Assembly: GCF_056712565.1 (NCBI RefSeq)
Contig: NZ_CM160072.1
DNA length: 64,000 bases
Reading direction: 5' to 3' (one strand)
Shown piece by piece: positions 32,395 to 53,618 of the stretch (position 1 is the stretch's first letter; each line of letters begins with the position of its first letter). A program made the position numbers and the translations under genes. The notes under the pieces are model-generated. The model was not told where the DNA came from. It saw only the letters and a program-made list of their open reading frames with translations, and searched no databases.

Positions 32395-33573
32395 TCATGA
32401 AGTGACCACTTGTAGCTTAAATAATTGCACTGTGCTGATAAGCGCAGCAATAAACAACGCCGCCGCGCCGCAGAGAGTGGCGCTGGCAAGCGCCGATGTT
32501 CCATTGCTGAGCATACTAGTCAGCGCCGGGCCGAGGATTTGCCCAATGCCGTAAATGAGCGTCACAAAGCCTAAAAGATTGAGATTTCCCGGTACGCTCA
32601 GTTGGCGGGCGATAGTCATCACCAGAGATGTCGTGCCCATAAAGGTACCGCCAAAACCAAGACTGCTGATGATAAGCAAGAGAGGCGAGTCGCTGGCGAG
32701 AGTAAGCAGCACACAGATAGCCTGCACCAGCAAATTCGCCGTCAGGCAGGGCAAAGCCCCCCAACGTTTTGCTGCCCATAGCCAGCCAAAGCAACCAGGC
32801 ACAATTGATAAGCCGACTAACGTCCAGAGATGGGCGGTTAACAATGGTGAGCCTGCATCTTTCGCCATGAGCGGCAGGTAAGTCGCGACGATGATATAAC
32901 CAAATCCCGCCAGGCCGTACAGAATAGCCAGTAACCACCAGCTCATTATCTGTTGCTCCGTTTTTGCCAATGGCATTGGTGTGATGGCGTGTTTTTTCGA
33001 GGGCATTAAAAGCGTAAGTGCAATCAGCATCATGCCAGAAAGCGCCCCGGCGCCTTGCCATAACGTTTGCGAGGAGAGGTCAAAATGCAGGCCTGCCAGA
33101 ACATATTCATTGCCCAGTGCGATGCCAATGCCAACGCCAGAAAACAAAGCTGCCAGCACAAAAGGATGGCGCGTGTGCTGCATAATCAGCGTCGAACCAA
33201 AAATCAGCATACCGGCGCTGGCGACACCCGCCAGGACGCGAATCAATAACACCAGAATAAATGGCGGCAACCATGCCATTGCGAGGATCAACAACCCGCT
33301 CGCCAGGGCAGAAGCCAACAGAAATGGGCGCAGGCGCGATGGCTGGTGAAATGCGCCAAAAGAAAATAGCAGACTGCCAGCCAGATACCCCGCATAGTTG
33401 CCGCTGGCAATCCACGAGAGCTGGCTAAATGAAAACGATCCTTCCGCCATCATGACGGGCAACATAGGCGTATAAAGGAAGCGGCCTAAACCCATACCTA
33501 AGGTCAGAACCAGCATCCCGAAAAGCGCGGTGCTGAAAGAAAAGCGTTCTACGGGATGCGTGGACGAAGGCAT
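32395..33573 (-). CDS. yjiJ: MFS transporter YjiJ
   Basis: 392-aa ORF with many predicted transmembrane segments. Confidence 0.8.
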
Positions 33574-33640
33574 GTTTAACCTTGTTTGTCATTTTTGTTG
33601 TTAACAAGTTAATAACAAAAAGGTGAAGCATGCCAGCCTG

Positions 33641-35593
<1,953 letters not shown>

Positions 35594-35596
35594 TCC

Positions 35597-36748
35597 TTAC
35601 AGCATCTCAATAAAGGCCGCGACACGGGTACTGAGCTGCCCGACATCCGAGGTGGAGTAGTCTGTTTCAATAGCGATATAAGGAATGTTGTGCTGCTGGC
35701 GCACATGACGTTTAATCGCCAGCGATTCCACCGCGTAGGTATGGCACGCCTGCAAAATCACATCAACTACGCCATCGACCTGATATTCCTCCACCATCTG
35801 GCTGAGCATTTTCAGGCGCTGATCGTTCGGCGAAACACAGGAGCAGCCAATCGCCAGATATTTATCCGCCAGCGCGTCGTAGACATCGCCCGTTTCTGCC
35901 ACGCATTGCTCGGTCGCTTTCGCCCCGGTGCAGTTTTCATAACCGACAACCCAGCCGCCATTCTCTTCAATCGCGCGCACCACTTTTTCTGCTGCGCCGC
36001 CAATCGGGCAGCCGGTGATTAAAATGCGCGGACGCGGGTCCAGTCGCTGGCCTTCTTCCCACTGCTGACGAACGCGGGCGGTCATTGCATCCAGTTCATT
36101 GATCAACGCCTCTTTATCGAACCGGAAGGTTGCGCCGTAAACCACTTTCAGAATGTCGCTGCCGCTAAGCGCCGGAGGATTTAACTGCCCAAGATGATAA
36201 AAGTTGGCCAGTGCGCGACGTTCGCGGTTTTTCAGCGCAATGGCATCGCGCAGAGCATCTTCGCTAATCTCGTGCCCAAAACGTTCTTCTACCGTTTTTT
36301 GCAAGCGCAGCATCTCGGCTTTCCATAATGCACGCGAGGCATCGTCCTTAACGCTGTTTGGCAACTGCATCACATGAACGGGCTTAAATTCTGCCATGTA
36401 TTCATACATTTTCTTTTTGCCGTCGCAGGTGGTTTCACCGACCACCAGATCAGAAAAGTAGAAGTAGGGGCATTTATCGGTTTTGCCGAAGCCGTAGCTG
36501 CTTTTAATCAGCGGGCAGAGGTTGCGCGGCAGATCTTTCTCGGCTTCTTCAATGGTTTCATCAGAGGTGGAACATAGCGAAACCACAACCGCACCGGCTG
36601 CCATCGGGATCTCTTGCGGCATAAAGGTGCAGTAGGTGCCAACCAGCGGAATGCCGCGCTCCTTGAGATCCATGACGGTGAGAAAGCCTTTCTGGCGAGC
36701 TTCAGAGAACTGATCGAAAATGGCGGGTAGATCGGTGACAAGTGACAT
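35597..36748 (-). CDS. yjiM: YjiM, 2-hydroxyacyl-CoA dehydratase HgdB-like component
   Basis: ORF 35597-36769; start set at MSLVTDLPAIFDQ (383 aa); immediately upstream of yjiL. Confidence 0.8.
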   Translation of the reverse strand: MSLVTDLPAIFDQFSEARQKGFLTVMDLKERGIPLVGTYCTFMPQEIPMAAGAVVVSLCSTSDETIEEAEKDLPRNLCPLIKSSYGFGKTDKCPYFYFSDLVVGETTCDGKKKMYEYMAEFKPVHVMQLPNSVKDDASRALWKAEMLRLQKTVEERFGHEISEDALRDAIALKNRERRALANFYHLGQLNPPALSGSDILKVVYGATFRFDKEALINELDAMTARVRQQWEEGQRLDPRPRILITGCPIGGAAEKVVRAIEENGGWVVGYENCTGAKATEQCVAETGDVYDALADKYLAIGCSCVSPNDQRLKMLSQMVEEYQVDGVVDVILQACHTYAVESLAIKRHVRQQHNIPYIAIETDYSTSDVGQLSTRVAAFIEML

Positions 36749-36863
36749 GATTTTCCTTCCCCGTACCACGGGAGATAATGAAAAGAGGCCACATTATTAC
36801 CATTCTTTTAGTGTGGTTTATTTGATCTCTCTCGCGGTTAGCCACTTAGTTTTTCATGGATTT

Positions 36864-38144
36864 CTATAAATTGCCGAGGGGGAACAAGGCCGGGAGCTGC
36901 GACAGCAAATACAAAATAAGTCCAATACAACCGCCAACCAGCGTACCGTTGACACGGATAAACTGGAGATCTTTGCCGATATTTAACTCGATTTGCCGCG
37001 ACATATCCCGTGCGTCCCAGCTTTTTACCGTGTCGCTGATATGGCGAGTCAGGAATGCGGAAAACTCAGGCGCAATGCGGTGTGCGGCTTGTTCCAGATG
37101 ACCATTTAACGACGCCCGCAAGGCATCATCGGCAATTAACGTTTCGCCAAACCATTGACCCGCCCGCGCGATACGTTCTTTCACACGAGAATCTTCACTG
37201 TTGATATCCGCATTCAGCCATTCCCGTAAATCCCCCCACAATTCACTGAGATAGCGGTTAAAAGCTTCATCTTCTTTCAGATAGCTTTTTACGGCATCGG
37301 CTCGCGCTGCCATTTCCGGATCGTTTTTCAGCTTGTCGATCAGGGCAAAAGTGGCGCGATCAAACGCATGGCGGATCTGATGCGCACGATCGCGGCTGAT
37401 ATCATCAAGCAAAGAATTCACCGCGTCAGAAACCAACTCCGCGCTATGTTCGCCCAGCCATTCAGTGGGCAAAATTTTGGCTTTCAGTGGATGCTCGCTC
37501 TCCAGCCAGCGAACAATTTGCTGGGCGATAAACTTGCGCGATTTATCGCGCTGGAGAAGGGCGATCAACTGTGCGATCAGCGTATCGAGCAGCACCTGAT
37601 GACGATCGTTTCTGGTCATGCTCTCCAGAATCAGTGCGCTGGTGCCGGAAAGATCGACCTTATCGATCGCCCGGTGGACCGCGCGCTTAAGCAGGCGCTG
37701 AATACGCGCATCATCGGTCAGTTCGAGAAAACCGCTCATGATCTGTAACAGATGCTGACCAACGCGGCGGGCGTTCTCCGGCTGACTAAACCAGTTGCCA
37801 ATCAACAACGCCGGTTCGTGACGTCGAATCAATGCCACCAGCGATTGGGTATCGAGAAATTTTTCCTGCACGAACTGGCCGAGATTTTCGCCAATCCGGT
37901 CTTTATTACGCGGGATAATCGCCGTATGACGAGAAATGATCGGAATCGGCACGCGGCGAAACAGCGCCACCACCGCAAACCAGTCCGCCAGCGCGCCGAC
38001 CATCGCCGCTTCAGCAATCGCCTTCACACCGCTCACCCAAAAATTGGGCGGCAAAAACAGCGTAACGACAAAGGTAGCAGCGGCGATAAGCAGTAAAGAG
38101 AGAGCCAACATTTTGGCGCGTCTGAGTTCAATGAGTTTATTCAT
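36864..38144 (-). CDS. yjiN: Inner-membrane protein YjiN (DUF445)
   Basis: ORF 36864-38180; start set at [16 protein letters not shown] (426 aa). Confidence 0.75.
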
Positions 38145-38328: not shown

Positions 38329-39249
38329 ATGACAAACTTTACGACCAGCACGCCGCATGACGCATTATTTAAATCCTTTCTCACACACTCTGACACCGCG
38401 CGGGATTTTATGGAGATCCACTTACCCAAAGATTTACGTGAACTGTGCGATCTCGATAGCTTAAAACTGGAATCCGCCAGCTTTGTCGATGAAAAATTGC
38501 GGGCGCTACATTCCGATATTCTGTGGTCGGTAAAGACCCGTGAAGGCGATGGCTATATTTATGTAGTGATTGAACATCAGAGCCGTGAGGATATTCATAT
38601 GGCCTTTCGTCTGATGCGATATTCCATGGCGGTGATGCAGCGCCATATCGAACATGATAAACGCCGGCAGCTACCACTGGTCATCCCGATGCTGTTTTAT
38701 CACGGTAGCCGTAGCCCTTATCCTTGGTCTTTGTGCTGGCTGGACGAATTTGCCGACCCAACTACCGCACGGAAGCTTTATACCGCCGCGTTCCCGCTGG
38801 TGGATATCACTGTCGTGCCAGACGACGAGATTGTGCAGCATCGCAGAGTCGCCCTGTTGGAGTTGATCCAAAAGCATATTCGCCAGCGCGATCTGATGGG
38901 GCTTATTGACCAACTGGTAGTATTACTGGTTACAGAGTGTGCTAATGACAGCCAGATAACTGCGCTGTTAAATTACATTTTACTGACTGGTGATGAAGCG
39001 CGTTTTAATGAGTTTATCAGTGAAATTACCCGTCGACTGCCACAACAAAGGGAGCGAATAATGACGATTGCAGAGCGAATTCATAATGATGGATATATAA
39101 AAGGGGAACAGCGCATTCTTCGATTGTTTTTGCAGAATGGGGTAGATCCTGAATGGATACAAAAGATTACCGGACTTTCGGCAGAGCAAATACAGGCATT
39201 AGAGCAGCCCTTGCCTGAGCGTGAGCCTTATTCATGGCTCAAGAGCTAA
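38329..39249 (+). CDS. rpnD: Recombination-promoting nuclease RpnD (PD-(D/E)XK, Rpn/YhgA-like); intact here
   Basis: 306-aa uninterrupted ORF with Rpn-family N-terminus ([25 protein letters not shown]). Confidence 0.8.
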
Positions 39250-39267
39250 TCAGAGACGGATGACAAA

Positions 39268-39376
39268 CGCAAAGCTGCCTGATGCGCTACGCTTATCAGA
39301 CCTACATTATCTCTGCAATCTATTGAATTTGCGCGGTTTGTAGGCCGGATAAGGCGTTCACGCCGCATCCGGCATG
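39268..39376. repeat. BIME-like pair of REP elements
   Basis: GCCTGATGCGCTACGCTTATCAGACCTACA and TGTAGGCCGGATAAGGCGTTCACGCCGCATCCGGCA in opposite orientation. Confidence 0.65.
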
Positions 39377-39654
39377 AACGAAGCACACTTTACGTGGCGA
39401 TGATAGTGACCTTCCTGCACCAACCTTGCCGCCGCCATTTATGTGAACGGTACATTAACGCTGCTGGTGGCAGCAAATGCAGACCCGGTGCGTGTTACAG
39501 CAGGTGAGAGATGAACGGTTAAAGGATATTGGGTTATGCAGGGAGGATGTGGTGTAATGGAGAGAGTCCTTCACGAAACGATGGGATTTATATGTCACCT
39601 CGTCAGATAAGGGGTTATTATTGCGAAATCATCGCTTCACGGAAAGACGTCAGA

Positions 39655-41748
39655 ATGAAAGCTACAGAAGCCCGCCTACTCGATTTTTTAAAACGTTCGC
39701 AGCAGTTCGTTATTACCATTTATCAACGGACTTATTCATGGACAGAACAACAATGTCGGCAACTTTGGGACGACATCATTCGTGCCGGAAAGCGTGACGA
39801 TATATCAGCGCATTTTATCGGTTCGGTTGTTTATATTGAGCAGGGGTTGTATCAGGTTTCTGGTATTTCTCCGTTACTGGTCATTGATGGTCAACAAAGG
39901 CTGACGACCGCAATGTTGCTGATTGAGGCTTTATCGCGTCATCTTGGCGAAGACGAAGTTTTTGATGGCTTTTCAGCAATGAAATTGCGTAATTATTATT
40001 TACTCAATCCTTATGAGTCCGGCGAGAAAGGATTTAAATTACTGCTGACCGAGACTGATAAAGACAGTTTGCTGGCGTTAATAAAACAAAGACCAATGCC
40101 AGAAAACTATTCCCATCGAATAATGGAAAACTTTACTTTCTTTGATGAACAAATTACCAAACTCGGTGATGACTTGATCCCCTTATGTCGTGGGTTAGCA
40201 AAGTTATTAATTGTCGATGTGGCGCTTAATCGTGGTCAGGATAATCCGCAACTGATTTTTGAAAGTATGAACTCCACCGGTAAGGCATTAAGTCAGGCCG
40301 ATCTGGTGCGCAATTTTATTCTGATGGGCCTCGAACCAGAGCATCAAACCCGGTTGTATGAAGATCACTGGCGTCCAATGGAAGTCGCGTTTGGTCAGCA
40401 AGGTTACAGCGAATATTTTGACAGTTTTATGCGTCATTATCTGACGGTAAAAACGGGGGAGATCCCTCGGACAGATGAAGTCTATGAGGCATTTAAACTC
40501 CATGCCCGCAGCCAGAGTGTTGCTGAAAAAGGCGTAGATCGGCTGGTTGAAGATATTCACATCTACGCGGAGTATTACTGTGCAATGGCATTGGGAAAAG
40601 AAAGTGACAAATCGCTTGCTACGGCTTTTCAGGATTTGCGCGAGTTAAAGGTCGATGTGGCGTATCCTTTCTTACTGGCGCTTTATCATGACTATAAAAA
40701 TGGCGTTTTGTCTCACGAAGATTTCCTGAGCATAATTCGTTTAATTGAATCTTATGTTTTCCGCCGTGCAGTATGTGCGATTCCGACAAATTCTCTTAAC
40801 AAGACGTTTGCTACTTTTTATAAGGTCATTAATAAAGAAAAATATCTGGAAAGTATTCAGGTACATTTTCTGAATCTGCCTTCATATCGTCGTTTCCCCA
40901 ACGATGATGAATTTAAACGGGAATTAAAAGTTCGTGATCTCTATAATTTCCGTAGTCGCAGCTACTGGTTACGACGACTGGAAAACGATAAACGCAGAGA
41001 GCGCGTGGAAGAGTTTACGATTGAGCATATTATGCCGCAGAACGAAAATTTGTCGGCTAAATGGCGTGAAGAGCTGGGAAGTGACTGGCAACGCATTCAT
41101 AAAGAACTGTTGCATACGTTGGGGAATCTCACATTAACGCGCTATAACTCCCGCTACAGTGACAGACCTTTCGCGGAAAAACGCGATATTGAAGACGGCT
41201 TTAAACATAGCCCGCTCTATTTGAATATCGGTCTTGGACAGTGCGAAAAATGGGATGAAGCAGCCATTCGCGCCCGTGCAGATCGTCTGGCCGATCTCGC
41301 GGTTCAGGTCTGGCAAGCGCCTGCTCTTCCTGAAGAGGTTTTAGCTGTTTATCGGGCGCAGCCGGAGAACAAAACCAGTTACAGCCTGAGTGATTATCCT
41401 TTTCTTGCTGATGGTTCGCATAGCCGGGTGTTATTTGATCATCTTCGCGATGAAGTTATGCGCCTGGACGCAGGGATCACGCAGGAAGTTTTAAAGCTCT
41501 ATATTGCGTTTAAAGCTGAAACGAATTTTGTTGATGTTGTACCGCAAAAAAGCCGACTGCGGTTGTCGCTTAATATGCAGTTTCATGAACTGGTCGATCC
41601 GAAAGGTATTGCCAAAGATGTGACAAATGTTGGGCGATGGGGCAATGGTGATGTGGAAATTGGTTTCAGTGACCTCGCACAACTTCCTTACATTATGGGA
41701 TTAATTCGTCAGGCATTTGAAAAACAGATGGAGAGCGCGTTGGTATAA
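39655..41748 (+). CDS. DUF262/DUF1524 (GmrSD-like) protein, candidate type IV restriction / defence nuclease
   Basis: ORF 39529-41748; start set at MKATEARLLDF (697 aa). N-terminal DUF262 signature (YQRTYSW ... LVIDGQQRLTT) and C-terminal HNH-like DUF1524 signature (EHIMPQN ... LGNLTL..YN). Confidence 0.8.
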   Translation: MKATEARLLDFLKRSQQFVITIYQRTYSWTEQQCRQLWDDIIRAGKRDDISAHFIGSVVYIEQGLYQVSGISPLLVIDGQQRLTTAMLLIEALSRHLGEDEVFDGFSAMKLRNYYLLNPYESGEKGFKLLLTETDKDSLLALIKQRPMPENYSHRIMENFTFFDEQITKLGDDLIPLCRGLAKLLIVDVALNRGQDNPQLIFESMNSTGKALSQADLVRNFILMGLEPEHQTRLYEDHWRPMEVAFGQQGYSEYFDSFMRHYLTVKTGEIPRTDEVYEAFKLHARSQSVAEKGVDRLVEDIHIYAEYYCAMALGKESDKSLATAFQDLRELKVDVAYPFLLALYHDYKNGVLSHEDFLSIIRLIESYVFRRAVCAIPTNSLNKTFATFYKVINKEKYLESIQVHFLNLPSYRRFPNDDEFKRELKVRDLYNFRSRSYWLRRLENDKRRERVEEFTIEHIMPQNENLSAKWREELGSDWQRIHKELLHTLGNLTLTRYNSRYSDRPFAEKRDIEDGFKHSPLYLNIGLGQCEKWDEAAIRARADRLADLAVQVWQAPALPEEVLAVYRAQPENKTSYSLSDYPFLADGSHSRVLFDHLRDEVMRLDAGITQEVLKLYIAFKAETNFVDVVPQKSRLRLSLNMQFHELVDPKGIAKDVTNVGRWGNGDVEIGFSDLAQLPYIMGLIRQAFEKQMESALV

Positions 41749-41794
41749 CGTGGCGAATAATACCCGGTAGCACTGGCGCTACCGGGTCAATGTA

Positions 41795-42136
41795 TCAGGC
41801 GACTTTCTGTTTACCCGCAATCACCCCAATAAACTCCTGCACCTGCCTTTGTTTACGCGCCGACAGCTTGCACACCTGGCGAAGCGACTGCATCAGTTCG
41901 CTCTCTTCGGCGGCGGGGGGTTGGGCGGTGAGGACAATACAGCCTTCCATCACTTTGACATCTATCGCCGTGCCAGTGGCAAAACCGGCGGCTTCCAGCC
42001 ACTGACCTTTCAGGGTGATGGCGGGAATACGGCTGTAATCCGGGTAGCGACTCGCATAACTCACGGTTAATTGACGGTTATTTGCCGGGGAGACTTCTGC
42101 TTCGAACGGTTGTGCAATAGAATGCGTGTCAGTCAT
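41795..42136 (-). CDS. symE: SymE, SOS-induced toxin-like protein (113 aa)
   Basis: ORF 41795-42193; start set at [52 protein letters not shown], matching SymE. Confidence 0.85.
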
Positions 42137-42200
42137 GATTACTATTCTCCATAAATAGTGATTGTGATGAGCGGTGCGGGTGTGTTGGCGCACATCCGCA
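42120..42200 (+). ncRNA. symR: Putative SymR antisense sRNA overlapping the symE 5' end (approximate)
   Basis: SymR is known to be encoded antisense to the symE translation start; plus strand here includes GCGGGTGTGTTGGCGCACATCCGC hairpin. Ends not determinable. Confidence 0.35.
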
Positions 42201-42364
42201 TCGCGCTAAATACCTGGATATATCATCAGTAAATACAGGGAAAGTCCAGCTAAAAATAGAATAAAATGGGAAGTTTCTGGAACGATTTAAATATATTTGT
42301 GTGAGTTATGATTGGCGTAAAAATAATAAATAGCGCACCAGAAAGGTGCGCCAGAAAATAATGA

Positions 42365-43732
42365 TCAGGACTTTTTACGCGAGGCTTTTTTACCCCCGCT
42401 GGCTGCGCGTTCAGCTTTGATTTTCTCCAGCAACGCGGCGGCGCTGTTTTCACCGCTGATTAATTCCGGGTTTTCGGCCCGCCACTGGGCGGTGAGTTCA
42501 CCACGGAACGCTTTTGCCAGGATGGATTGCGTCAGATTGTTGACGCGGGCTAAGGCGTTGTTGACCTGTTTTTCTATTGTGTCGGCGTAGGCGAAGAGTT
42601 GCTCGACGCGGCGAACGATTTCAGCTTGTTCGGGAAGGGGGGGAACAGTTATTGGGTATGCAATTAATTTCTGTGCATTAATATTTGATTGACTGACCCC
42701 ATCAGATTTAACTGAATAGCAATATTGTCTCCCCAAAATGCTATTTAAATGGTAGTTAAGATAGTCAGGGTTTAAATCAGGTAAACATTGAACCCTAATC
42801 AAATAACCTGCATAAATAGCTGGTTGCTCTGATTTATATATGGCTGTTTTCCCGACAAGTTCAGGACTATTTGTACGATTGAATAATACATCATTGTACT
42901 CAAGTTTATACTTTTCAATTTCTATGGTATCTGACGTATAGACTAGATCCGTCCAGTCCAACTTTCCTCCCTGAAGATTGCCCATTCTTAATACAGGAAT
43001 GAGTCCTTCTTTATTAGACTTAGATGACGTTCCGTAACTTGGTTTTTTTATAAACTCCCCAAGTTTGCCTTCTCTCCACCCAGACAGGCTTGAATTATCT
43101 CTCCAGTCTTCAGTTAGTTTTCCTCTCACCGCTGCACCCAGAACCGCCTGACGAAAACGTTTCAGGATTTGTGGGATTTGCTCAAGACGTGCTTTGGTGC
43201 TGTCTACCTGTGCCAGCAGCGTATCGAGTTTTTCAGCGATGATTTTTTGTTCGGCAAACGGTACAAGAACAAATGGTAATGTTTTCGCAGAACTACCAGA
43301 AATTTCTTTAAAAGTTGTTCCTGTGCCCATTTCCTCTGCAATATGTCTGATGTTGCGGAGAAAGTAATATGCATAATCAGGAAAAATGTCTGAAGGAAAA
43401 GCAAAACTTTTGAAACCCTGGTTAGTCGCAATCTCATTTGCAGCAATAGCAACATATCCAATCGGTGCCCGGCTACTAAAAAGTATAGTGCCTTTGGGCA
43501 TTAGTTTTGCTGAACAAGAGGAATAGCCTAGTGTAGTTAAATCTCTGGCACCATGTGAGATATATTTCTCTTTATAACCGCTCAAATCGGCAGGCGTAAG
43601 CCAGGCGACTCCCTCACCCGAAGGTGCAAAATTTTCAGCGACTCCCGATTTTGGTGTCCCACCAGAGATGACATCAGCAATGTCGCCTATTTCAATCTGT
43701 TCCCACCCCTCCGGCAATTTCCCAGCACTCAT
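42365..43732 (-). CDS. hsdS: Type I restriction-modification specificity subunit HsdS (family IA), 455 aa
   Basis: N-terminus MSAGKLPEGW, central conserved region (EQKIIAEKLDTLLAQVDSTKAR...RFRQAVLG) and C-terminus (EQAEIVRRVEQLFAYADTIEKQVNNALARVNNL...) match EcoKI-type HsdS as I remember it; the two variable regions differ. Confidence 0.85.
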   Translation of the reverse strand: MSAGKLPEGWEQIEIGDIADVISGGTPKSGVAENFAPSGEGVAWLTPADLSGYKEKYISHGARDLTTLGYSSCSAKLMPKGTILFSSRAPIGYVAIAANEIATNQGFKSFAFPSDIFPDYAYYFLRNIRHIAEEMGTGTTFKEISGSSAKTLPFVLVPFAEQKIIAEKLDTLLAQVDSTKARLEQIPQILKRFRQAVLGAAVRGKLTEDWRDNSSLSGWREGKLGEFIKKPSYGTSSKSNKEGLIPVLRMGNLQGGKLDWTDLVYTSDTIEIEKYKLEYNDVLFNRTNSPELVGKTAIYKSEQPAIYAGYLIRVQCLPDLNPDYLNYHLNSILGRQYCYSVKSDGVSQSNINAQKLIAYPITVPPLPEQAEIVRRVEQLFAYADTIEKQVNNALARVNNLTQSILAKAFRGELTAQWRAENPELISGENSAAALLEKIKAERAASGGKKASRKKS

Positions 43733-45318
43733 TCCTTCACCCCACCAAATGCTTCTTCCAGCAACTGGCGCTGCGCATCCGCCTCATCGCTCGCCCCCAG
43801 TTCACGCATCAGCGCATCCAGTTCAGACAGCGCCTGTACCAGTTCACCCATCGCTTCTGCCGCTAATACATCCGGCTCCGGCAGGTTGTCGGCATCAATA
43901 CTGTCTTTATCTTTCAGCCAGGAGATATCCAGCGAATCGGATTTCGCGGTGCGGATCCACTCGCGGCTGAACTTGCGCCAGCGGCTGGTAGCAAGATGCT
44001 GGTCGGTGTTTTTGTTCTCTTCGCTGTCGGCAATTTCCGTCTCTTCGGCGTTAAAACTCCATTCACCTTCAGTGCGCGGGCTTAAGCCGTGCGGGTCTTC
44101 GCCAAACACGCGCTCAAACGGTTGCAAATGCTCGTCGGTAAACGGCGTGCGTTTACCAAAGCTCGGCATATTGGTCCGCAGGTCGTACACCCACACGTCA
44201 TCGGTGCAGTTCTTATCCTGATTCGGGTTCGCCACCGTCCCTTTGATAAAGAACAGCACGTTGGTCTTCACGCCCTGCGCGTAAAAAATACCGGTCGGCA
44301 GACGCAGAATAGTGTGCAGATGACACTTATCCATCAGGTCACGACGGATGTCCGTACCTTTGCCGCCTTCAAACAGCACGTTATCCGGCACCACCACCGC
44401 CGCACGACCGCCGGGGTGCAGCGTTTCGATAATATGCTGCATAAAGCACAACTGTTTGTTGCTGGTCGGGTGAACAAAGGTGCGGGTAATGTTGGTGCCT
44501 GCGGCGCTGCCAAACGGCGGGTTAGTGGCGACAATATGCGCCTTCGGCAGGTTTTCGCCGTCGCTGCCCAGGGTGTTGCCCAGACGGATTGCGCCGCCGT
44601 GGTCGAGGTTGCCTTCAATATCGTGCAGCAGGCAGTTCATCAGCGCCAGACGACGGGTGCCGGGCACCAGTTCGAGGCCGATAAACGCGCGGTGGATCTG
44701 GAAATCCTGCGTGTCGCCATCAAGGTCGTCCAGATCGTTAGTCTGCGACTTAACGTAGCGGTCGGCTTCAATCAAAAAGCCCGCCGTACCGGCTGCCGGA
44801 TCCTGTACCACTTCACGTGGCTGCGGTTTCAGCAGATGAATAATGGTTTTAATCAGCGGACGCGGGGTGAAGTACTGGCCCGCGCCAGACTTGGTTTCAT
44901 TGGCGTTCTTCTGCAGCAGCCCTTCGTACATATCGCCGAAGTCATCGCGCGACTTACCGTGCGCACCGTTGTACCAGTCCAGTGAATCCATATTGCTGAC
45001 CAGTGCGGTTATTTGTTTCGGCTCGGTGATGGTGGTACTAACATTATGAAAAACTGCCTGTACCAGCTTTTTGTCATCTTCGCCTAAATGCACGAGCATT
45101 TTTCGGTAGAACTGCAACTGCTCCTGGCCGATGCGGGATTTCAGGTCATCCCAGCGGTAACCTTCCGGCAGGTATTCCGCTTCCTGCCCGGTCTCTTTAC
45201 ACATTTTCAAAAACAGCAGCGAGGCGAGTTCATTGACGTAGTTTTGATAGGAAACGCCGCCATCGCGCAGGTTGTCGCACAGCTTCCACAGCTTCGCGAC
45301 CAGATCGTTATTGTTCAT
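43729..45318 (-). CDS. hsdM: Type I restriction-modification methyltransferase HsdM
   Basis: 529-aa ORF with N6-adenine methyltransferase motif (NPPFG); 4-nt overlap with hsdS. Confidence 0.9.
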   Translation of the reverse strand: MNNNDLVAKLWKLCDNLRDGGVSYQNYVNELASLLFLKMCKETGQEAEYLPEGYRWDDLKSRIGQEQLQFYRKMLVHLGEDDKKLVQAVFHNVSTTITEPKQITALVSNMDSLDWYNGAHGKSRDDFGDMYEGLLQKNANETKSGAGQYFTPRPLIKTIIHLLKPQPREVVQDPAAGTAGFLIEADRYVKSQTNDLDDLDGDTQDFQIHRAFIGLELVPGTRRLALMNCLLHDIEGNLDHGGAIRLGNTLGSDGENLPKAHIVATNPPFGSAAGTNITRTFVHPTSNKQLCFMQHIIETLHPGGRAAVVVPDNVLFEGGKGTDIRRDLMDKCHLHTILRLPTGIFYAQGVKTNVLFFIKGTVANPNQDKNCTDDVWVYDLRTNMPSFGKRTPFTDEHLQPFERVFGEDPHGLSPRTEGEWSFNAEETEIADSEENKNTDQHLATSRWRKFSREWIRTAKSDSLDISWLKDKDSIDADNLPEPDVLAAEAMGELVQALSELDALMRELGASDEADAQRQLLEEAFGGVKE

Positions 45319-45394
45319 TGTGAGTTCCGTAAATTAAACAACGGCCCGCATTGTTTGGGGCCGCAGAAGAAGAAATTGCCGAGGGTAATATACA

Positions 45395-45518
45395 CAAAAT
45401 CATTCAGGTTGCATCAAGGCGGCAAGTGAGTGAATCCCCGGGAGCGTACAGAAGTACGTGACCGGGGTGAACGAGCGCAGCCAACGCAGAGGCAGCCTGA
45501 AGGATGAAGTGTATACGT
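45395..45518. repeat. ERIC/IRU-like repeat in the hsdR-hsdM intergenic region
   Basis: GTGAATCCCCGGGAGCGTACAGAAGTACGTGACCGGGGTGAACGAGCGCAGCCAACGCA resembles the ERIC consensus including the ERIC1R/ERIC2 primer regions. Confidence 0.6.
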
Positions 45519-45519
45519 G

Positions 45520-48500
45520 TCAGGCCAGCTCGTCCCAGATATAATCGCTGAATTTATCAAGCAGGTTGTCGAGATTATCGTCAAAGGTTCTTTGTAGCAT
45601 CGCCTTACCGCCGCGGCGGTGGAAGTTGCCGGTTTTGAAGACATCGTCGTCGAGCACCACTTTCTCTTTCAGCGCCTGCGCTAAACGATCGAGCCAGCTT
45701 AATTGCTCGCTGCTCCAGTCGTTTTCACCCTTAATGCGCGTCAGCGCGTGATCGACACGTTCCTCAAACGGTTTCAGCGCATCGCCCACCGCAGCGCGGC
45801 GAATATGACCAATCAGCCGGGCGGCGATATCTTCATTGCGCGTCTCTTTCCATGCTTTGCGCAGGGAAGATTCCTCAAAATGCTGGCGGTCAAACCACTC
45901 CTGGAGCTCGACCAGCCCTTTACGGGTGAGATCGCGCGGGCGATTGATCACCGCCTGCAATGCCGGCTGCGCGTTCGGGGAACGTTGCACCAGCGAGTCA
46001 AAGGCTTCGAGGAAATCCTGCGGCGTGTCGTAATCACCGTACAGCGATTTTACACTCACCACTTCATCGTCGATATCGAGGAAGATCGGCGCATCATTCA
46101 GGTTGTTGATGTCCGTTTTCAGCTTTTCCAGACGGGCGATAAAGCCAGGCAGTTTGTTAAAGACTTCGGCGCTCCAGTGCGGCCCTTTTTCCCGCAGGCG
46201 CGAGGCGAAGCCGTTAAAGTTCACGCCCGCCGCGTCCTGGCATAGCTCATCCAGACGACGCACCTGTTTATCTATCGTTTCGCTGCGGTCACGGTTAAAC
46301 GTGGCCAGGCCGATGATGCGCTGGAGCTTCGCCACCAATTGTTCATGGCTGTGCTCGGCAAAGCTACGGCCATCCGCTTCGGTGATTTTATAGGTTTCTG
46401 AATCGGTAATTTCATTGACCAGCGTTTGCAGTTCCACCTTCGGACGCACCACCACCGGACGCATGGTGTCGACGCTCTCCAGCGTGCTGTAGATATCGAC
46501 ACAGTCGAAAATCTTAAAGCTGGTTTTATTCACGTCCGGGCATAAGCGCGTGGCGCGGCCTTTCATCTGCTCGTACAGAATACGGCTGCGTACTTTACGC
46601 AGGAACACGATATTACAGATCGACGGAATATCGACGCCGGTTGTCAGCAGGTCGACGGTTACCACGATATTGGGCAGCCGCTCTTTATTGAAGCGGGTGA
46701 TCATGGTCTGCACTTTGCGCGCGTCTTTATCGGCATCACCGGTGATCTTGATGATCGCGTCGTGCTCCAGTTGCGGATACTTTTTCTTGAACGCGGTACG
46801 CAACTCTTCCACCACCATATCGGCATGGGCATTGGTAACGCAGAAGACCAGCGTTTTTTGCGACCCGGTCGGGTCAAGGTAGTTGGTGAGCTCGTTACAG
46901 ACGGCGCGGTTAAACGCCGGGATCACCAGGCCACGGTTAAAGTCGGCGACCTCAAAATCCTGATCGTCTTCCAGGGTATCGTTGATCACTTCTCCCTGCG
47001 GGCTGATGCGCTCTACCTGTTCGCCCTTGGAGAGATAAACCCCCTCCTGGGCGTTGCGGGTGATGATCTGAATCGGCGGATCCTGGTCGATCAGAAAACC
47101 GTCGATAACCGCGGTACGGTAGGTATAACGGTAAACCGGCTCGCCGAAAATCTGCACCGTATGCAGCGCCGGGGTGGCGGTGAGGGCGATTTTTACCGCA
47201 TCGAAGTGATCGAGAATGCGACGGTAGGCAGAAACGTAATCCAGCTGGCTGCGGAACTGCAGCTCGCCTTCGGTCTGCTCTTTATCGAGAATATAGCCGC
47301 GATGCGCTTCATCGACGACGATACAGTCGTAACGGGCCACCGGCATCGGTTCATCTGATTGTAGGGTGCGTTTCACCAGCGACTGTACGGTGGCAACGTG
47401 AATTTTGGTGCTGTCTTCGGGGAATTTATCCGTCAGCCCTTTAATGTCGAAAATGCTGTTGAAGGTGTCGCCGTTAATACGCGTATCTTCAAACGCCCCC
47501 AGTGCCTGCTCGCCAAGAGAACGGCGATCGACAAGGAAGAGAATGCGTTTAAAACGCTGGGACTGGATCAGGCGGAACATCATGGCAATTGCGGTGCGGG
47601 TTTTACCGGTACCGGTCGCCATCGCCAGCAGGATCTCTTGTTGACCCTTGACGATTGCCTTTTCCACCGCGCGGACGGCATCTTCCTGGTAATAACGCAG
47701 GCCCAGCTCGCTCATGCCCGGGTTATCGGCAAACCACTGATTCTGTTTTTGCGGTTCGCTGCCGAGCATTTCCAGCAGCTCTTCCGGGCGATGCCACTCG
47801 GGTAAGGCTTTCGACATATTGCGGGTATCACGCACGTCGCGATACCAGATGCCACTTTTAGTCTTCATTGCTGCGCGATATTCGCGCCCGTTGGTGGAGT
47901 AGCAGAAGGGGATTTTAAACCGTTGTTGGCCGCTGGTGTCCTGCCAGCTAGTTTCATACTCCGGCACAGCTTCATGCACTTCATCCGGTGAGTAATGCTC
48001 AAGCAAGGTTTCCCGCAGGAAGCCATTATCGAAGCATTTGCTGTAGCGATACGACTCATTGAGCTTGCCGGGAACGTCGATATTTTTACGTTTCGCCTCT
48101 ACCACCGCGATGGGCTTGAGGCCGACAAACAGCACATAATCCGCAAAGCCCTGATTACCCGTTTCATCTTTCCCGGTCGGCCATTCGGCAATGGCTTTAT
48201 TGACGCCGGGTTCCGGGCGTGCGCCTTTGGAGAAGCGCAGGGTTTTGCTATCGGCCTGCCAGCCTGCTTTACGCAGTTGCGCGTCAATCAGGAAGCGACT
48301 CTCTTCTTCGCTAAGGTTGAGTGTGCGCTTGATGGCCTGATCGGTAATTTCTTTGTGGTAAGCCTTACGTTCCTGTTCGGTCTGTTTGGCCAGCTCCGCG
48401 TTCTTCTCGGCGAGCTGTGCTTCCAGCGCCGCAAGGCGAGCCTGGGTTTGCGCTTCTGTTTCCTGCTGTTTGCCTTCCAGAATGGCGATATAGCCGTTCA

Positions 48501-49032
48501 GGGCAACCAGCTTCTGCTGTTGCGCTTCGACTTCTGCCCGAGTCTGCGCTTTTTCTCGCGCCTGCTGTTCAAGCTGTTGTTTTAGCGTCAGCACTTCCTG
48601 GTGATAGAGGTTTTCGCCACGTTCCGGCAACACAAATACCGGCACCGGGAAGTCATAATCTTTGGTGACCAGACGGTAGTACCAGACAGCCAGGCGGAAC
48701 CCGAGTCGCAGGCACATCTGGGCATCGTCGAGATCGTTATGGTATTCGTGCACCGCCTGGTTACCAATGCGGCGTAATTTGTGGAATACAGAGAGAATGT
48801 TGTCATCAACGAAGGCGATTTTGCCGAGTTCGCGCAGGAGATCGTGTTGATTCTCACAAGGGGGGATGTTGAGTAACAGACCAAGATGTTTCGCTGTAGC
48901 TTCGCCAAACATACGCATTTTAATCAGCGTCGTGTTGGGATCATCCGGGTAGTTATTTTCCGCCGCACAGGCGATGGCATAAGTGAAGTCGTTGACGCCC
49001 TTCAGGAATTCGAAGTTGGATTTATTCATCAT
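45520..49032 (-). CDS. hsdR: Type I restriction endonuclease subunit HsdR
   Basis: 1170-aa ORF with helicase motif I (GTGKTRT) and DEAH-like VVDEAHRG; upstream of hsdM/hsdS. Confidence 0.9.
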   Translation of the reverse strand: MMNKSNFEFLKGVNDFTYAIACAAENNYPDDPNTTLIKMRMFGEATAKHLGLLLNIPPCENQHDLLRELGKIAFVDDNILSVFHKLRRIGNQAVHEYHNDLDDAQMCLRLGFRLAVWYYRLVTKDYDFPVPVFVLPERGENLYHQEVLTLKQQLEQQAREKAQTRAEVEAQQQKLVALNGYIAILEGKQQETEAQTQARLAALEAQLAEKNAELAKQTEQERKAYHKEITDQAIKRTLNLSEEESRFLIDAQLRKAGWQADSKTLRFSKGARPEPGVNKAIAEWPTGKDETGNQGFADYVLFVGLKPIAVVEAKRKNIDVPGKLNESYRYSKCFDNGFLRETLLEHYSPDEVHEAVPEYETSWQDTSGQQRFKIPFCYSTNGREYRAAMKTKSGIWYRDVRDTRNMSKALPEWHRPEELLEMLGSEPQKQNQWFADNPGMSELGLRYYQEDAVRAVEKAIVKGQQEILLAMATGTGKTRTAIAMMFRLIQSQRFKRILFLVDRRSLGEQALGAFEDTRINGDTFNSIFDIKGLTDKFPEDSTKIHVATVQSLVKRTLQSDEPMPVARYDCIVVDEAHRGYILDKEQTEGELQFRSQLDYVSAYRRILDHFDAVKIALTATPALHTVQIFGEPVYRYTYRTAVIDGFLIDQDPPIQIITRNAQEGVYLSKGEQVERISPQGEVINDTLEDDQDFEVADFNRGLVIPAFNRAVCNELTNYLDPTGSQKTLVFCVTNAHADMVVEELRTAFKKKYPQLEHDAIIKITGDADKDARKVQTMITRFNKERLPNIVVTVDLLTTGVDIPSICNIVFLRKVRSRILYEQMKGRATRLCPDVNKTSFKIFDCVDIYSTLESVDTMRPVVVRPKVELQTLVNEITDSETYKITEADGRSFAEHSHEQLVAKLQRIIGLATFNRDRSETIDKQVRRLDELCQDAAGVNFNGFASRLREKGPHWSAEVFNKLPGFIARLEKLKTDINNLNDAPIFLDIDDEVVSVKSLYGDYDTPQDFLEAFDSLVQRSPNAQPALQAVINRPRDLTRKGLVELQEWFDRQHFEESSLRKAWKETRNEDIAARLIGHIRRAAVGDALKPFEERVDHALTRIKGENDWSSEQLSWLDRLAQALKEKVVLDDDVFKTGNFHRRGGKAMLQRTFDDNLDNLLDKFSDYIWDELA

Positions 49033-49219
49033 TGTTATTAATCCATTGCTGTGTGGGCCTGTCCAAATATTTAAGGCCCATAACGCCCTATCTTAGCTTT
49101 CTGTACCTTTCCGGGCAATGACCGGAGTCACAGCAACTGACTCATTTCTAACGTGTTCGTCTATTTTGGTAGTGTTATAGTAGCCGAAAAACATCTACCT
49201 GATTCTGCAAGGATGTACT

Positions 49220-50134
49220 ATGACGGTTCCTACCTATGACAAATTTATTGAACCTGTTCTGCGTTATCTGGCAACAAAACCGGAAGGTGCAGCCGCGCGT
49301 GATGTTCATGAGGCTGCCGCGGATGCATTAGGACTGGATGACAGCCAGCGATCGAAAGTCATTACCAGCGGACAACTTGTTTATAAAAATCGTGCAGGCT
49401 GGGCACATGACCGTTTAAAACGTGCCGGGTTGTCGCAAAGTTTGTCGCGTGGCAAATGGTGCCTGACTCCTGCGGGTTTTGACTGGGTTGCGTCTCATCC
49501 CCAGCCAATGACGGAGCAGGAGATGAACCATCTGGCCTTCAATTTTGTGAATGTCAAACTTAAGTCACGGCCGGATGCCGTCGATTTAGATCCGAAAGCC
49601 GACTCTCCCGATCATGAAGAACTTGCAAAGAGCAGCCCGGACGATCGGTTAGATCAGGCGCTAAAAGAGCTTCGTGATGCGGTGGCTGATGAGGTTCTGG
49701 AAAACTTATTGCAGGTTTCTCCTTCGCGCTTTGAAGTCATTGTTCTGGATGTTTTGCATCGCCTGGGGTATGGCGGCCACCGTGATGATTTGCAGCGTGT
49801 TGGCGGTACTGGAGATGGTGGCATCGATGGTGTGATATCGCTTGATAAACTTGGCCTGGAGAAAGTTTATGTTCAGGCAAAACGTTGGCAGAATACTGTA
49901 GGCAGGCCAGAATTACAGGCATTTTACGGCGCACTGGCTGGGCAAAAAGCGAAACGTGGGGTGTTTATTACCACTTCTGGATTTACTTCTCAGGCGCGTG
50001 ACTTTGCCCAATCCGTCGAGGGTATGGTGTTGGTTGATGGGGAACGCCTGGTGCACTTAATGATCGAAAACGAAGTAGGGGTTTCTTCACGTTTGTTGAA
50101 GGTGCCGAAACTGGATATGGATTATTTTGAGTGA
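49220..50134 (+). CDS. mrr: Mrr type IV restriction endonuclease (modified-DNA dependent)
   Basis: 304-aa ORF divergent from hsdR, as in K-12. Confidence 0.85.
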   Translation: MTVPTYDKFIEPVLRYLATKPEGAAARDVHEAAADALGLDDSQRSKVITSGQLVYKNRAGWAHDRLKRAGLSQSLSRGKWCLTPAGFDWVASHPQPMTEQEMNHLAFNFVNVKLKSRPDAVDLDPKADSPDHEELAKSSPDDRLDQALKELRDAVADEVLENLLQVSPSRFEVIVLDVLHRLGYGGHRDDLQRVGGTGDGGIDGVISLDKLGLEKVYVQAKRWQNTVGRPELQAFYGALAGQKAKRGVFITTSGFTSQARDFAQSVEGMVLVDGERLVHLMIENEVGVSSRLLKVPKLDMDYFE

Positions 50135-50142
50135 AATATCAG

Positions 50143-50172
50143 GCCGGATGCGGCTGCGCCTTATCCGGCCCA
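50143..50172. repeat. REP-like palindrome
   Basis: GCCGGATGCGGCTGCGCCTTATCCGGCC. Confidence 0.55.
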
Positions 50173-50179
50173 TAACCCC

Positions 50180-51136
50180 TTACTTCCTCAACCCCGCAAA
50201 CGCCGCCCGAATCTCATCCTCCGGCAGCTGAATCCCGATAAACACCATCGTGCTATGCGGTTTTTCATCGCCCCACGGCCTGTCCCAGTCGGCGCTGTAG
50301 AGGCGCTGGACGCCCTGGAACAGCAGGCGGTTAGGTTCGCCGTCAATCCACAGCATCCCTTTGTAACGCAGCAGTTTATCTGCCGATTCCAGCAGCAGGT
50401 TTTCCATCACGCGGGAAACTTCGCTGATATCTACCGGGTAATCCAGTTCCACCACAATCGACGAAATATCGTTTTGTTTGTCCGCGATAAAGTGAAAACG
50501 TGGCTTGGTGCTGACGACGTTTTCTTCCAGCATAAAACCGTTGGTGTTGAACAACAGGCCCAGGTCGATGTCGCCGTGGGTGACGGTGTAGACCGGTGCA
50601 CGGGCGTTGATGCGCGCCAGGCGTTCACGCAGTTTTTCTGCTTCGCCTGCGACGTCGGTTTTAGTCAGCAGAATACGGTCGGCGTAGCCAACCTGGGACT
50701 GGGCGATGGTGAACTGGTTCATCTGCTCATCGGCATGTACCGCATCCACCAGCGCAATCACGCCATCCAGCAGGTAACGCTGGCATAAAATCTCATGGGA
50801 GAAAAAGGTCTGAATAATCGGGCCGGGATCGGCCATGCCGGTGCATTCAATGACCAGACGGTCGAACTGAATATTGCCCTTGTCGAGATTATCCAGCAGG
50901 TCGAGTAGGGCGTCTTCCAGCTCGTTGGAGCGCGAACAGCAGATGCAGCCGTTGGTCAGCGTTTTGATCTGCGTGGCGCGGTCGCCAATCAGTTGATCAT
51001 CAACGGAGACTTCGCCGAATTCGTTTTCAATCACGGCAATCTTGTAGCCGTGTTGTTCGTTAAGAATATGGCGCAGCAGGGTGGTTTTTCCTGCGCCTAA
51101 AAAACCGGTGAGTAGGGTAACTGCAATCGGGTTCAT
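50180..51136 (-). CDS. yjiA: COG0523 GTPase YjiA (G3E family)
   Basis: ORF 50180-51220; start set at MNPIAVTLLTGFLGAGKTTLLRHIL (P-loop), 318 aa. Confidence 0.85.
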   Translation of the reverse strand: MNPIAVTLLTGFLGAGKTTLLRHILNEQHGYKIAVIENEFGEVSVDDQLIGDRATQIKTLTNGCICCSRSNELEDALLDLLDNLDKGNIQFDRLVIECTGMADPGPIIQTFFSHEILCQRYLLDGVIALVDAVHADEQMNQFTIAQSQVGYADRILLTKTDVAGEAEKLRERLARINARAPVYTVTHGDIDLGLLFNTNGFMLEENVVSTKPRFHFIADKQNDISSIVVELDYPVDISEVSRVMENLLLESADKLLRYKGMLWIDGEPNRLLFQGVQRLYSADWDRPWGDEKPHSTMVFIGIQLPEDEIRAAFAGLRK

Positions 51137-51146
51137 GCTCTCTCCA

Positions 51147-51350
51147 TTAACAACAGCGCATACCGCCTTTACCATCGCCGCCGTAGCGCGCGTTCTGGCG
51201 TTCGCGGAAGAATTCTTCATAGCTCATGTACGGCTTGTCGGGATGGTTGGTCTTCATATGCTCGACGTAGTTGTCGTAGTCTGGAATGCCAATCAACATC
51301 TTCGCCGCCTGGCCGAGATATTTTTTTGCCTGTCCTAAGTTACCAAACAT
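51147..51350 (-). CDS. yjiX: Small protein YjiX (DUF466), 67 aa
   Basis: Short ORF immediately downstream of btsT and upstream of yjiA. Confidence 0.75.
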
Positions 51351-51392
51351 TTTGCCTTCCAGATATGCGTAAAGCCCGGAAGGTCCGGGCTG

Positions 51393-51430
<38 letters not shown>

Positions 51431-51467
51431 TACGATAGCCATTTTGTAAGCCGGATAAGGCAACCGG

Positions 51468-53618
51468 TTAGTGGTGCGAAGAGATCTTCACGCCGCCTTC
51501 CGGGATTGGAACGTACGGTGTTTCTTTGTCAGTACGTTTGTCGCTGTTACGCACCTTCAGCCAGGTTTTGAAACCGTAGAAGATGATGCTGTACACCACA
51601 ATCAGGAACAGAATACTCAGGCCTGCGTTGGTGTAGTTGTTCACAACGATGTGGTTCATGTTGGCAATCTGCTGCGCCGTCAGGTCAGTACCGTTAGCAA
51701 TCTTCTCTTTGTACTGGCTCGCCATGTAGAAGAAGCCTTCCATCTGCGGGTTGGTGCTGAACAGTTTCAGGCCCAGCGCCCAGGTGGTGCAGATAAGCAG
51801 CCATACTGCCGGGATAACGGTAACCCAGATGTATTGGGTGCGCTTCATCTTAATCAGTACAACGGTGCCCAGTACCAGCGCCACGGCTGCCAGCATCTGG
51901 TTGGAGATACCGAACAGCGGCCACAGGCTCTTAACGCCGCCCAGCGGATCGACCACGCCCTGATACAGCAGGTAGCCCCACAGACCCACACAGCCCGCAG
52001 TACCGATGATACCGGCAACCAGAGAGTCGGTTTTTTTCAGGAACGGGATGAAGTTACCCAGCAGGTCTTGCAGCATAAAGCGGCCAGAACGGGTACCCGC
52101 ATCCAGCGCGGTCAGGATGAACAGGGCTTCGAACAGAATACCGAAGTGATACCAGAAGCCCATGTCAGCCATCGGCAGCACTTTGTGGAACACGTGAGCG
52201 ATACCTACCGCCAGCGTTGGCGCACCACCTGCACGGTTCAGGACAGAAGGCTCACCAATGTCTTTCGCGGTTTGCAGGATCTGCTCTGGCGAAATCACGA
52301 AGCCCCAGGAGCTGACGGTCGCTGCCGCGTGTGCGGTAACGTCTTTCAGCTGTGCCATGATGATCGGCGCGTTCTCGCCACCCATTTCATGCAGGTTAGG
52401 CATGGTGATGCCGAGGCCAGCAGGCGGGGTGTTCATCGCGAAGTAAAGACCCGGTTCGATGATGGACGCAGCAACCAGCGCCATAATCGCCACGAAGGAC
52501 TCCATCAGCATTGCGCCGTAGCCGATGAAACGCGCGTCGGTTTCATTAGCCAGCAGTTTCGGCGTCGTGCCGGAAGAGATCAGCGCGTGGAAGCCAGATA
52601 CCGCACCACAGGCGATGGTGATGAACAGGAACGGGAACAGAGCGCCTTTCCACAGCGGGCCAGTACCGTCAATGTACTGGGTCATGGCAGGCATTTTCAG
52701 TTCCGGGTTCAGCACCACGATACCCAGCGCCAGGCCGACGATAACGCCGATTTTCAGGAAGGTTGCCAGATAGTCGCGCGGTGCGAGGATCAGCCACACT
52801 GGCAGCAGTGCGGAAACAAACGCATAGCCAATCAGCGCGAAAGTAATGGTGGTATCTTTAAAGGTCAGTGCCGGACCCCAGTACGGATCGTGAGCAATCA
52901 CGCCACCGAAGTAGATAGAGGCAACCAGCAGCACGATACCAATGACAGAGACTTCACCCACACGCCCCGGACGAATAAAGCGCATGTAGATACCCATAAA
53001 CAGCGCAATCGGTACGGTTGAGCAAACGGTGAAGACCCCCCACGGACTTTCGGCCAGGGCTTTAACCACAATCAGTGCCAGAACGGCGAGGATGATGATC
53101 ATGATTAAGAAACAGCCAAACAGCGCGATAGTCCCCGGTACTGGTCCCATCTCTTCTTTGATCATCTCACCAAGAGATGCGCCGTTACGGCGAGAGGAGA
53201 TAAACAGCACCATAAAGTCCTGAACCGCACCGGCCAGCACGACCCCCGCCAGCAGCCACAGCGTGCCAGGCAGGTAGCCCATCTGCGCGGCGAGAACCGG
53301 ACCCACCAGCGGACCAGCACCGGCGATAGCGGCGAAGTGGTGACCAAACAACACGTAACGGTTGGTCGGAACGTAGTTCAGACCGTCGTTGTTAATAACC
53401 GCAGGCGTCGCGCGCGTGGGGTCGAGTTTCATCACCTTCTGGGCGATGTACAGACTGTAGTAGCGATACGCCACCAGATACACCGACACAGAGGCGACCA
53501 CGATCCACAGGGCGCTGACGTGCTCCCCCCGACGTAATGCAACTACCGCGAGGCAGAATGCACCGATGATTCCGAGAATCACCCAAGGTATGTGCTTGAA
53601 TATCTTTTTAGTATCCAT
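51468..53618 (-). CDS. btsT: Pyruvate/H+ symporter BtsT (YjiY), CstA family
   Basis: ORF 51468-53633; start set at MDTKKIFKHIPWVIL (716 aa); large polytopic membrane protein. Confidence 0.85.
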   Translation of the reverse strand: MDTKKIFKHIPWVILGIIGAFCLAVVALRRGEHVSALWIVVASVSVYLVAYRYYSLYIAQKVMKLDPTRATPAVINNDGLNYVPTNRYVLFGHHFAAIAGAGPLVGPVLAAQMGYLPGTLWLLAGVVLAGAVQDFMVLFISSRRNGASLGEMIKEEMGPVPGTIALFGCFLIMIIILAVLALIVVKALAESPWGVFTVCSTVPIALFMGIYMRFIRPGRVGEVSVIGIVLLVASIYFGGVIAHDPYWGPALTFKDTTITFALIGYAFVSALLPVWLILAPRDYLATFLKIGVIVGLALGIVVLNPELKMPAMTQYIDGTGPLWKGALFPFLFITIACGAVSGFHALISSGTTPKLLANETDARFIGYGAMLMESFVAIMALVAASIIEPGLYFAMNTPPAGLGITMPNLHEMGGENAPIIMAQLKDVTAHAAATVSSWGFVISPEQILQTAKDIGEPSVLNRAGGAPTLAVGIAHVFHKVLPMADMGFWYHFGILFEALFILTALDAGTRSGRFMLQDLLGNFIPFLKKTDSLVAGIIGTAGCVGLWGYLLYQGVVDPLGGVKSLWPLFGISNQMLAAVALVLGTVVLIKMKRTQYIWVTVIPAVWLLICTTWALGLKLFSTNPQMEGFFYMASQYKEKIANGTDLTAQQIANMNHIVVNNYTNAGLSILFLIVVYSIIFYGFKTWLKVRNSDKRTDKETPYVPIPEGGVKISSHH

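Follow-up and report, generated by a model that had tools for sequence, protein, structure and literature searches.

The specificity subunits (HsdS) of Type I restriction-modification enzymes are laid out as a first target recognition domain (TRD1), a helix, a second target recognition domain (TRD2) and a second helix (PMC3874165 and established knowledge). In such enzymes, the two conserved helices pair as a coiled coil that docks two HsdM subunits and sets how far apart the TRDs stand, and each TRD reads one half of a bipartite target; M2S1 methylates one adenine per strand and, with two HsdR subunits, forms R2M2S1, which at an unmethylated site translocates DNA at the expense of ATP and cleaves at a distance. 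The family-IA prototype, EcoKI, recognises AAC(N6)GTGC; as reference we used the hsd locus of K-12 MG1655 (HsdS, b4348). A second specificity, CCA(N7)CTTC, was already represented by the prototype Eco646I, one of the two commonest isoschizomers in clinical E. coli (PMC2490747, PMC3874165).

The closest described system is that of E. coli UTI89, of which the hsdSMR locus was studied by Mehershahi and Chen (NAR 2021; PMC8287963). SMRT sequencing of UTI89 placed m6A at 5'-CCA(N7)CTTC-3' (754 sites, of which 97.8% on one strand and 99.3% on the other were methylated), and this methylation was gone in an hsdSMR deletion; the wild type, but not the deletion mutant, restricted plasmids that bore one or two unmethylated sites, and restriction of transformation depended on both motif and methylation (PMC8287963). 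UTI89 carrying the MG1655 hsdS methylated and restricted the EcoKI motif only (SMRT sequencing, restriction assays), so that UTI89 HsdM and HsdR function with the HsdS of EcoKI; the reciprocal strain, MG1655 with the UTI89 hsdS, was constructed and phenotype-screened only (PMC8287963). Neither removal nor switching of the system changed gene expression or phenotype (PMC8287963). The authors classed the system as Type IA (M and R 99% identical, S 45.4% identical) and named it EcoUTI89I; in REBASE, as cited there, it is grouped alongside 104 E. coli systems whose prototype is Eco646I (PMC8287963).

The DNA analysed here, referred to as the window, is a stretch of 64,000 nucleotides of contig NZ_CM160072.1. 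Its hsdS gene (42365–43732, minus strand; specificity subunit, EcoUTI89I/Eco646I-type allele) is an intact ORF of 455 amino acids with an ATG start, which, on reading of the sequence, overlaps the hsdM stop codon as ATGA. All 1368 of 1368 nucleotides are identical to hsdS of UTI89 (WP_001272440.1, S.EcoUTORF5051P). The published primers for knocking out hsdS in UTI89 (PMC8287963) carry 50-nt homology arms that match window positions 43683–43732 and 42365–42414 exactly, at the two ends of the ORF, which links the published gene to the window ORF. Among 5426 complete E. coli genomes, 223, UTI89 counted, hold the full-length gene at 100% DNA identity; besides UTI89 they include APEC O1, IHE3034, NU14, UM146, and S88-like strains.

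The likeness to UTI89 extends to the surroundings. The locus lies at the same chromosomal position with the same neighbours (mrr, symE/symR, and a GmrSD-like gene), and between 38.5 and 52.7 kb of the window only four differences from UTI89 were found: none in hsdS, none in hsdM, and one nucleotide in hsdR. The two differ in strain background only; the flank at 33.5–38 kb is about 2% divergent, and for this reason the window is not UTI89 itself. Over 24 kb the window is 100% identical to other ExPEC/APEC genomes, for example SF-468 and APEC O2:K1:H7 E18055.

The window locus is thus almost certainly a constitutive chromosomal family-IA Type I system whose hsdS is identical to that of EcoUTI89I, an Eco646I isoschizomer. 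The initial annotation had predicted a recognition sequence other than the AAC(N6)GTGC of EcoKI, a prediction borne out to the extent that sequence identity allows: the identical UTI89 allele methylates and restricts CCA(N7)CTTC (PMC8287963), and the window strain is expected to recognise this motif as measured in UTI89. The window holds ten CCA(N7)CTTC sites, both orientations counted, approximately the number expected from the genome-wide density in UTI89; those at 43059, 43742, and 43745 lie either within hsdS or in the 3'-terminal part of hsdM, and seven further sites lie elsewhere. DNA entering the window strain or its ST95-like ExPEC/APEC relatives would be restricted at CCA(N7)CTTC unless it came from an equally methylating host.

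That the locus is present yet inactive in the window strain, whether silent or decaying, was considered and seems very improbable. Disruption of hsdS does occur in some carriers of the allele or in relatives, by IS1 in strain N31 and by IS3 in strain TW11681 (locus L005, 4038–5200, in the central conserved region), but in the window all three ORFs are intact; hsdS and hsdM show no difference from the working genes of UTI89, and in hsdR only the single nucleotide given above is changed. A terminator-like hairpin with a T-run (42331–42353, minus strand) was found 12 nt past the hsdS stop by pattern scan and direct reading, as a consensus match only. A promoter scan gave four matches against 7.3 in shuffled sequence, no excess over chance.

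Allele, family, recognition sequence, and absence of a regulatory role have all been described before, and nothing new is added here on these points: Eco646I had already established the specificity, and the characterisation of the UTI89 allele dates from 2021. Because specificity, function, and lack of regulatory role are on record for the exact allele, no new question is opened by it. The locus is also a clean textbook case of Type I specificity evolving by exchange of TRD cassettes on a constant HsdM/HsdR chassis.

This chassis is that of EcoKI. The hsdM gene (43729–45318, minus strand) encodes the N6-adenine methyltransferase subunit of 529 amino acids (Pfam N6_Mtase and HsdM_N), identical to EcoKI HsdM at 524 of 529 residues (99%); hsdR (45520–49032, minus strand) encodes the translocase/endonuclease subunit of 1170 amino acids, identical at 1158 of 1170 residues (99%), with the Pfam domains expected of such a subunit and a score of 1742.9 bits against the NCBIfam equivalog for EcoKI-type R subunits (NF008521, cutoff 729). 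The gene order btsT-yjiX-yjiA-mrr-hsdR-hsdM-hsdS-symE is colinear with K-12, which is the locus position of family IA, and the similarity of HsdM and HsdR to the prototype (99% to EcoKI) is likewise that of family IA. HsdS itself has the two TRDs split by conserved central and C-terminal regions that mark the family; it contains two Methylase_S stretches (Pfam, E 4.6e-41), passes the NCBIfam equivalog for EcoKI-type S subunits (NF007278, 736.6 bits, cutoff 662), and has as its closest relative of solved structure the EcoKI S subunit model (PDB 2Y7C, E 4e-105). The Type IA frame proposed for the gene in the initial annotation is upheld by the HsdM and HsdR identities, by the location between mrr and symE, and by the NF007278 score.

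In contrast to its partners, HsdS is only 45% identical to EcoKI HsdS overall (455 amino acids against 464 in EcoKI), and the identity is distributed in blocks: 91% for aa 1–11, 20% for aa 12–157, 92% for aa 158–206, 28% for aa 207–356, and 90% for aa 357–455. The conserved blocks, which form a frame shared with EcoKI at 90–92% identity, align without gaps or change of length, whereas both TRDs are different and have no DNA match. The initial annotation had described EcoKI-like N-terminal, central, and C-terminal segments around two variable blocks (about residues 10–150 and 215–350); both parts of this description held, the block bounds being right within about 10 residues.

At the DNA level, the homology to K-12 that runs in from hsdM ends at window position 43702, returns at 43137–43257 (95.9%), and restarts at 42631, from where it continues through symE at 94.5% identity. 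The gene, read on the minus strand, accordingly divides into the N-terminal conserved segment (43702–43732; about aa 1–10, MSAGKLPEGW); the TRD1 cassette (43258–43701; about aa 11–158); the central conserved region of 121 nt, with one coiled-coil spacer helix (43137–43257); the TRD2 cassette (42632–43136; about aa 200–367); and the C-terminal conserved region, with the second coiled-coil helix and the tail (42365–42631).

The cassettes are AT-rich, as had been noted at the outset: the GC content is 0.42 for TRD1 (GC3 0.30) and 0.36–0.38 for TRD2 (GC3 0.30), against 0.50–0.58 for the conserved blocks of hsdS, 0.554 for hsdM, and 0.543 for hsdR. This composition is to be read as a property of the gene family, not of the allele, because the EcoKI TRDs are as AT-rich (GC 0.35 and 0.34). 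Among 450-nt windows of the 64-kb stretch, TRD1 and TRD2 fall at the 15th and 6th percentile only, positions that are not extreme because the stretch contains other AT-rich islands.

The window allele differs from that of EcoKI only by its two TRD cassettes. With both replaced, the specificity is different, yet HsdM and HsdR should still be exchangeable for their EcoKI counterparts.

Two routes to such an allele were weighed, exchange of cassettes and divergence of an ancestral hsdS in place by point mutation. Divergence in place would account for the Methylase_S fold that both window TRDs keep in common with those of EcoKI, and for TRD2 being a detectable homologue of EcoKI TRD2 (60 bits). 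It sits poorly with the edges of the cassettes, where DNA identity of 94–97% gives way over a few bases to sequence with no detectable match, and with the kinship of TRD1, which has relatives at 50–70% identity in many, distant phyla and matches an archaeal S subunit at 104 bits. The wide distribution of these relatives, together with the archaeal match, is in keeping with a pool of TRDs that many lineages have in common.

Mosaic alleles that occur in nature at this locus bear on the choice as well. When each cassette was searched alone, TRD1 was found in 242 E. coli genomes and TRD2 in 278, whereas the whole hsdS is present in 223; TRD1 thus occurs in 19 genomes beyond the carriers of the full allele, and 55 of the 278 TRD2 carriers have it at about 96.8% identity. 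Three hybrid types were compared: Tig228 (L004), TRD1 100% identical, TRD2 unrelated, 11 genomes (Tig228/BE2-5 type); TW11681 (L005), TRD1 98.6% identical, a third, unrelated TRD2, the gene being the one split by IS3; and strain 204446 (L003), TRD1 unrelated, TRD2 96.8% identical, the one locus examined among the up to 55 genomes that carry TRD2 at such identity. In every hybrid locus compared, the flanking hsdM and the central and C-terminal regions are 90–97% identical, and the junctions lie within conserved segments, a few to about 25 bases from those seen against K-12.

One TRD1 (98.6–100%) is thus combined with three TRD2s unrelated to one another, and one TRD2 (96.8%) also with an unrelated TRD1, all at one locus; these mosaics contradict divergence in place, to which we attach hardly any credence. 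Independent assortment of the cassettes, with junctions in conserved segments, fits recombination there, and comparison of these genome sequences supports the reading that TRD1 and TRD2 assort independently by recombination in the conserved segments. TRD exchange of this kind, foreseen in the initial annotation, is therefore sustained by natural alleles. The pattern of reassortment in the three E. coli hybrids is the same as that by which StySPI and StyLTIII gave rise to StySQ and StySJ, the classical family-IA hybrids, natural and laboratory-made, for which hsdS recombined within its central conserved region (PMC3874165 and established knowledge).

The mildly new element lies in these uncharacterised hybrid relatives only, not in the window allele. 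Strains BE2-5 and PE15, like Tig228, combine TRD1 with another TRD2, and ETEC1716, like strain 204446, combines TRD2 with another TRD1. No published specificity was found for hybrid alleles of the L003, L004, or L005 types. We would give an even chance to the expectation that such natural hybrids, if functional, recognise new targets built as CCA(Nx)-other or as other-(Nx)CTTC. Functional hybrids would also offer a direct test, provided by nature, of which TRD reads which half-site.

Phase-variable Type I systems that reassort their TRDs occur in other bacteria, and in the methylome of Bacteroides dorei the CCA and CTTC half-sites occur in several combinations, so that a phasevarion, in which hsdS would switch specificity for epigenetic gene regulation, was considered as well. 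The window has no second hsdS, and none of its inverted repeats takes in hsdS; the only arrays reported by Tandem Repeats Finder are four weak two-copy ones (scores 34–38), and there is no long simple-sequence tract. The allele is invariant in the 223 genomes that carry it, each genome having a single hsdS, and in UTI89 the sites are methylated nearly throughout and the system can be removed or switched without effect on expression or phenotype, as cited above (PMC8287963). A switching locus is, of all the readings weighed here, the one we would least expect to be right, and a constitutive system remains the preferred reading. The phase-variable Type I class, marked either by spare or silent hsdS copies with inverted repeats and a recombinase or by simple-sequence repeats in hsd genes, was accordingly rejected for the window locus.

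By general rule, the 5' half-site of a Type I target is read by the N-terminal TRD. On the strength of this rule, TRD1 would read CCA and TRD2 would read CTTC (GAAG), each TRD being assumed to read one half of 5'-CCA(N7)CTTC-3'. Among relatives of solved structure, TRD1 matches both TRDs of the Methanocaldococcus jannaschii S subunit (PDB 1YF2; 104 and 68 bits, respectively); the one hint that the sequence gives towards this assignment is a weak match of TRD2, at 37 bits, to the C-terminal, CTCC-specifying TRD of S.BsaXI (PDB 8W0P). Conserved frames and partner subunits of both proteins are unlike those of the window, and the likeness is one of TRD fold and type only, by which the same half-site is not implied.

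Three further searches were run. A sensitive blastn search of E. coli genomes for an EcoprrI-like (CCA N7 RTGC) relative of TRD1, meant to test whether TRD1 reads CCA, returned only the same TRD1 and one weak match; TRD1 as a protein query brought up about 2000 relatives in many phyla, none with a name that gives a specificity; and a full-text search for the motif led to the Eco646I paper and the Bacteroides dorei methylome, neither with data linking hsdS to half-sites that are relevant to the allele. The weak blastn match (93 nt, 72.9%) lies in an hsdS pseudogene of the EcoAI family (IB) in strain AR_0128 (L006, 4491–5390) and is present in 142 genomes; this pseudogene is truncated and adjoins IS1 and a cluster of resistance genes.

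The spacer of the motif is N7 for the window allele and N6 for EcoKI, and the recognition sequences differ. Since the HsdS frame has the same length as that of EcoKI, the difference does not come from a change of helix length of the EcoR124I/II type; the N7 spacer would rather reflect which positions the new TRDs specify. The interval between the methylated adenines is 8 for EcoKI, EcoBI, EcoDI, StySPI, and StyLTIII, and is given as '?' for Eco646I (PMC3874165). By analogy with these enzymes, the methylated adenine of the bottom strand may be the one that pairs with the first T of CTTC; an interval of 8 bp would follow, and the predicted methylated half-site would be 5'-GA(m6A)G-3'.

Directly downstream of hsdS, as in K-12, lies the toxin gene symE (41795–42136, minus strand), with the antisense RNA symR at 42131–42207 on the plus strand (Rfam RF01809, 95.8 bits). 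Beyond symE, K-12 has mcrBC, whereas the window has a continuous ORF of 739 amino acids with a TTG start (39529–41748, plus strand), in which the domains GmrSD_N, GmrSD_C, and DUF5655 were recognised, with no match to an NCBIfam model. This domain content suggests a GmrSD-like, modification-dependent nuclease of Type IV. In RefSeq the near-identical UTI89 sequence is split into a GmrSD protein of 387 amino acids and a DUF262 pseudogene, yet there is no stop in frame.

Differences from UTI89 are unevenly spread along the window: about 110 SNPs fall in the yjiJ-yjiN flank (33.4–38.1 kb; 33365–38100), and only four over the 14 kb with rpn, the GmrSD-like gene, symE, hsdSMR, mrr, and yjiA (38500–52732). 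The sharp shift in SNP density suggests that recombination has taken a different course in the block of restriction genes than in the flank. A pair of 22-nt inverted sequences (39335–39356 and 50157–50178; 86% complementary; REP-like, GCCGGATAAGGCG) flanks a block of 10.8 kb that reaches from the GmrSD-like gene to mrr; the two are probably ordinary REP elements.
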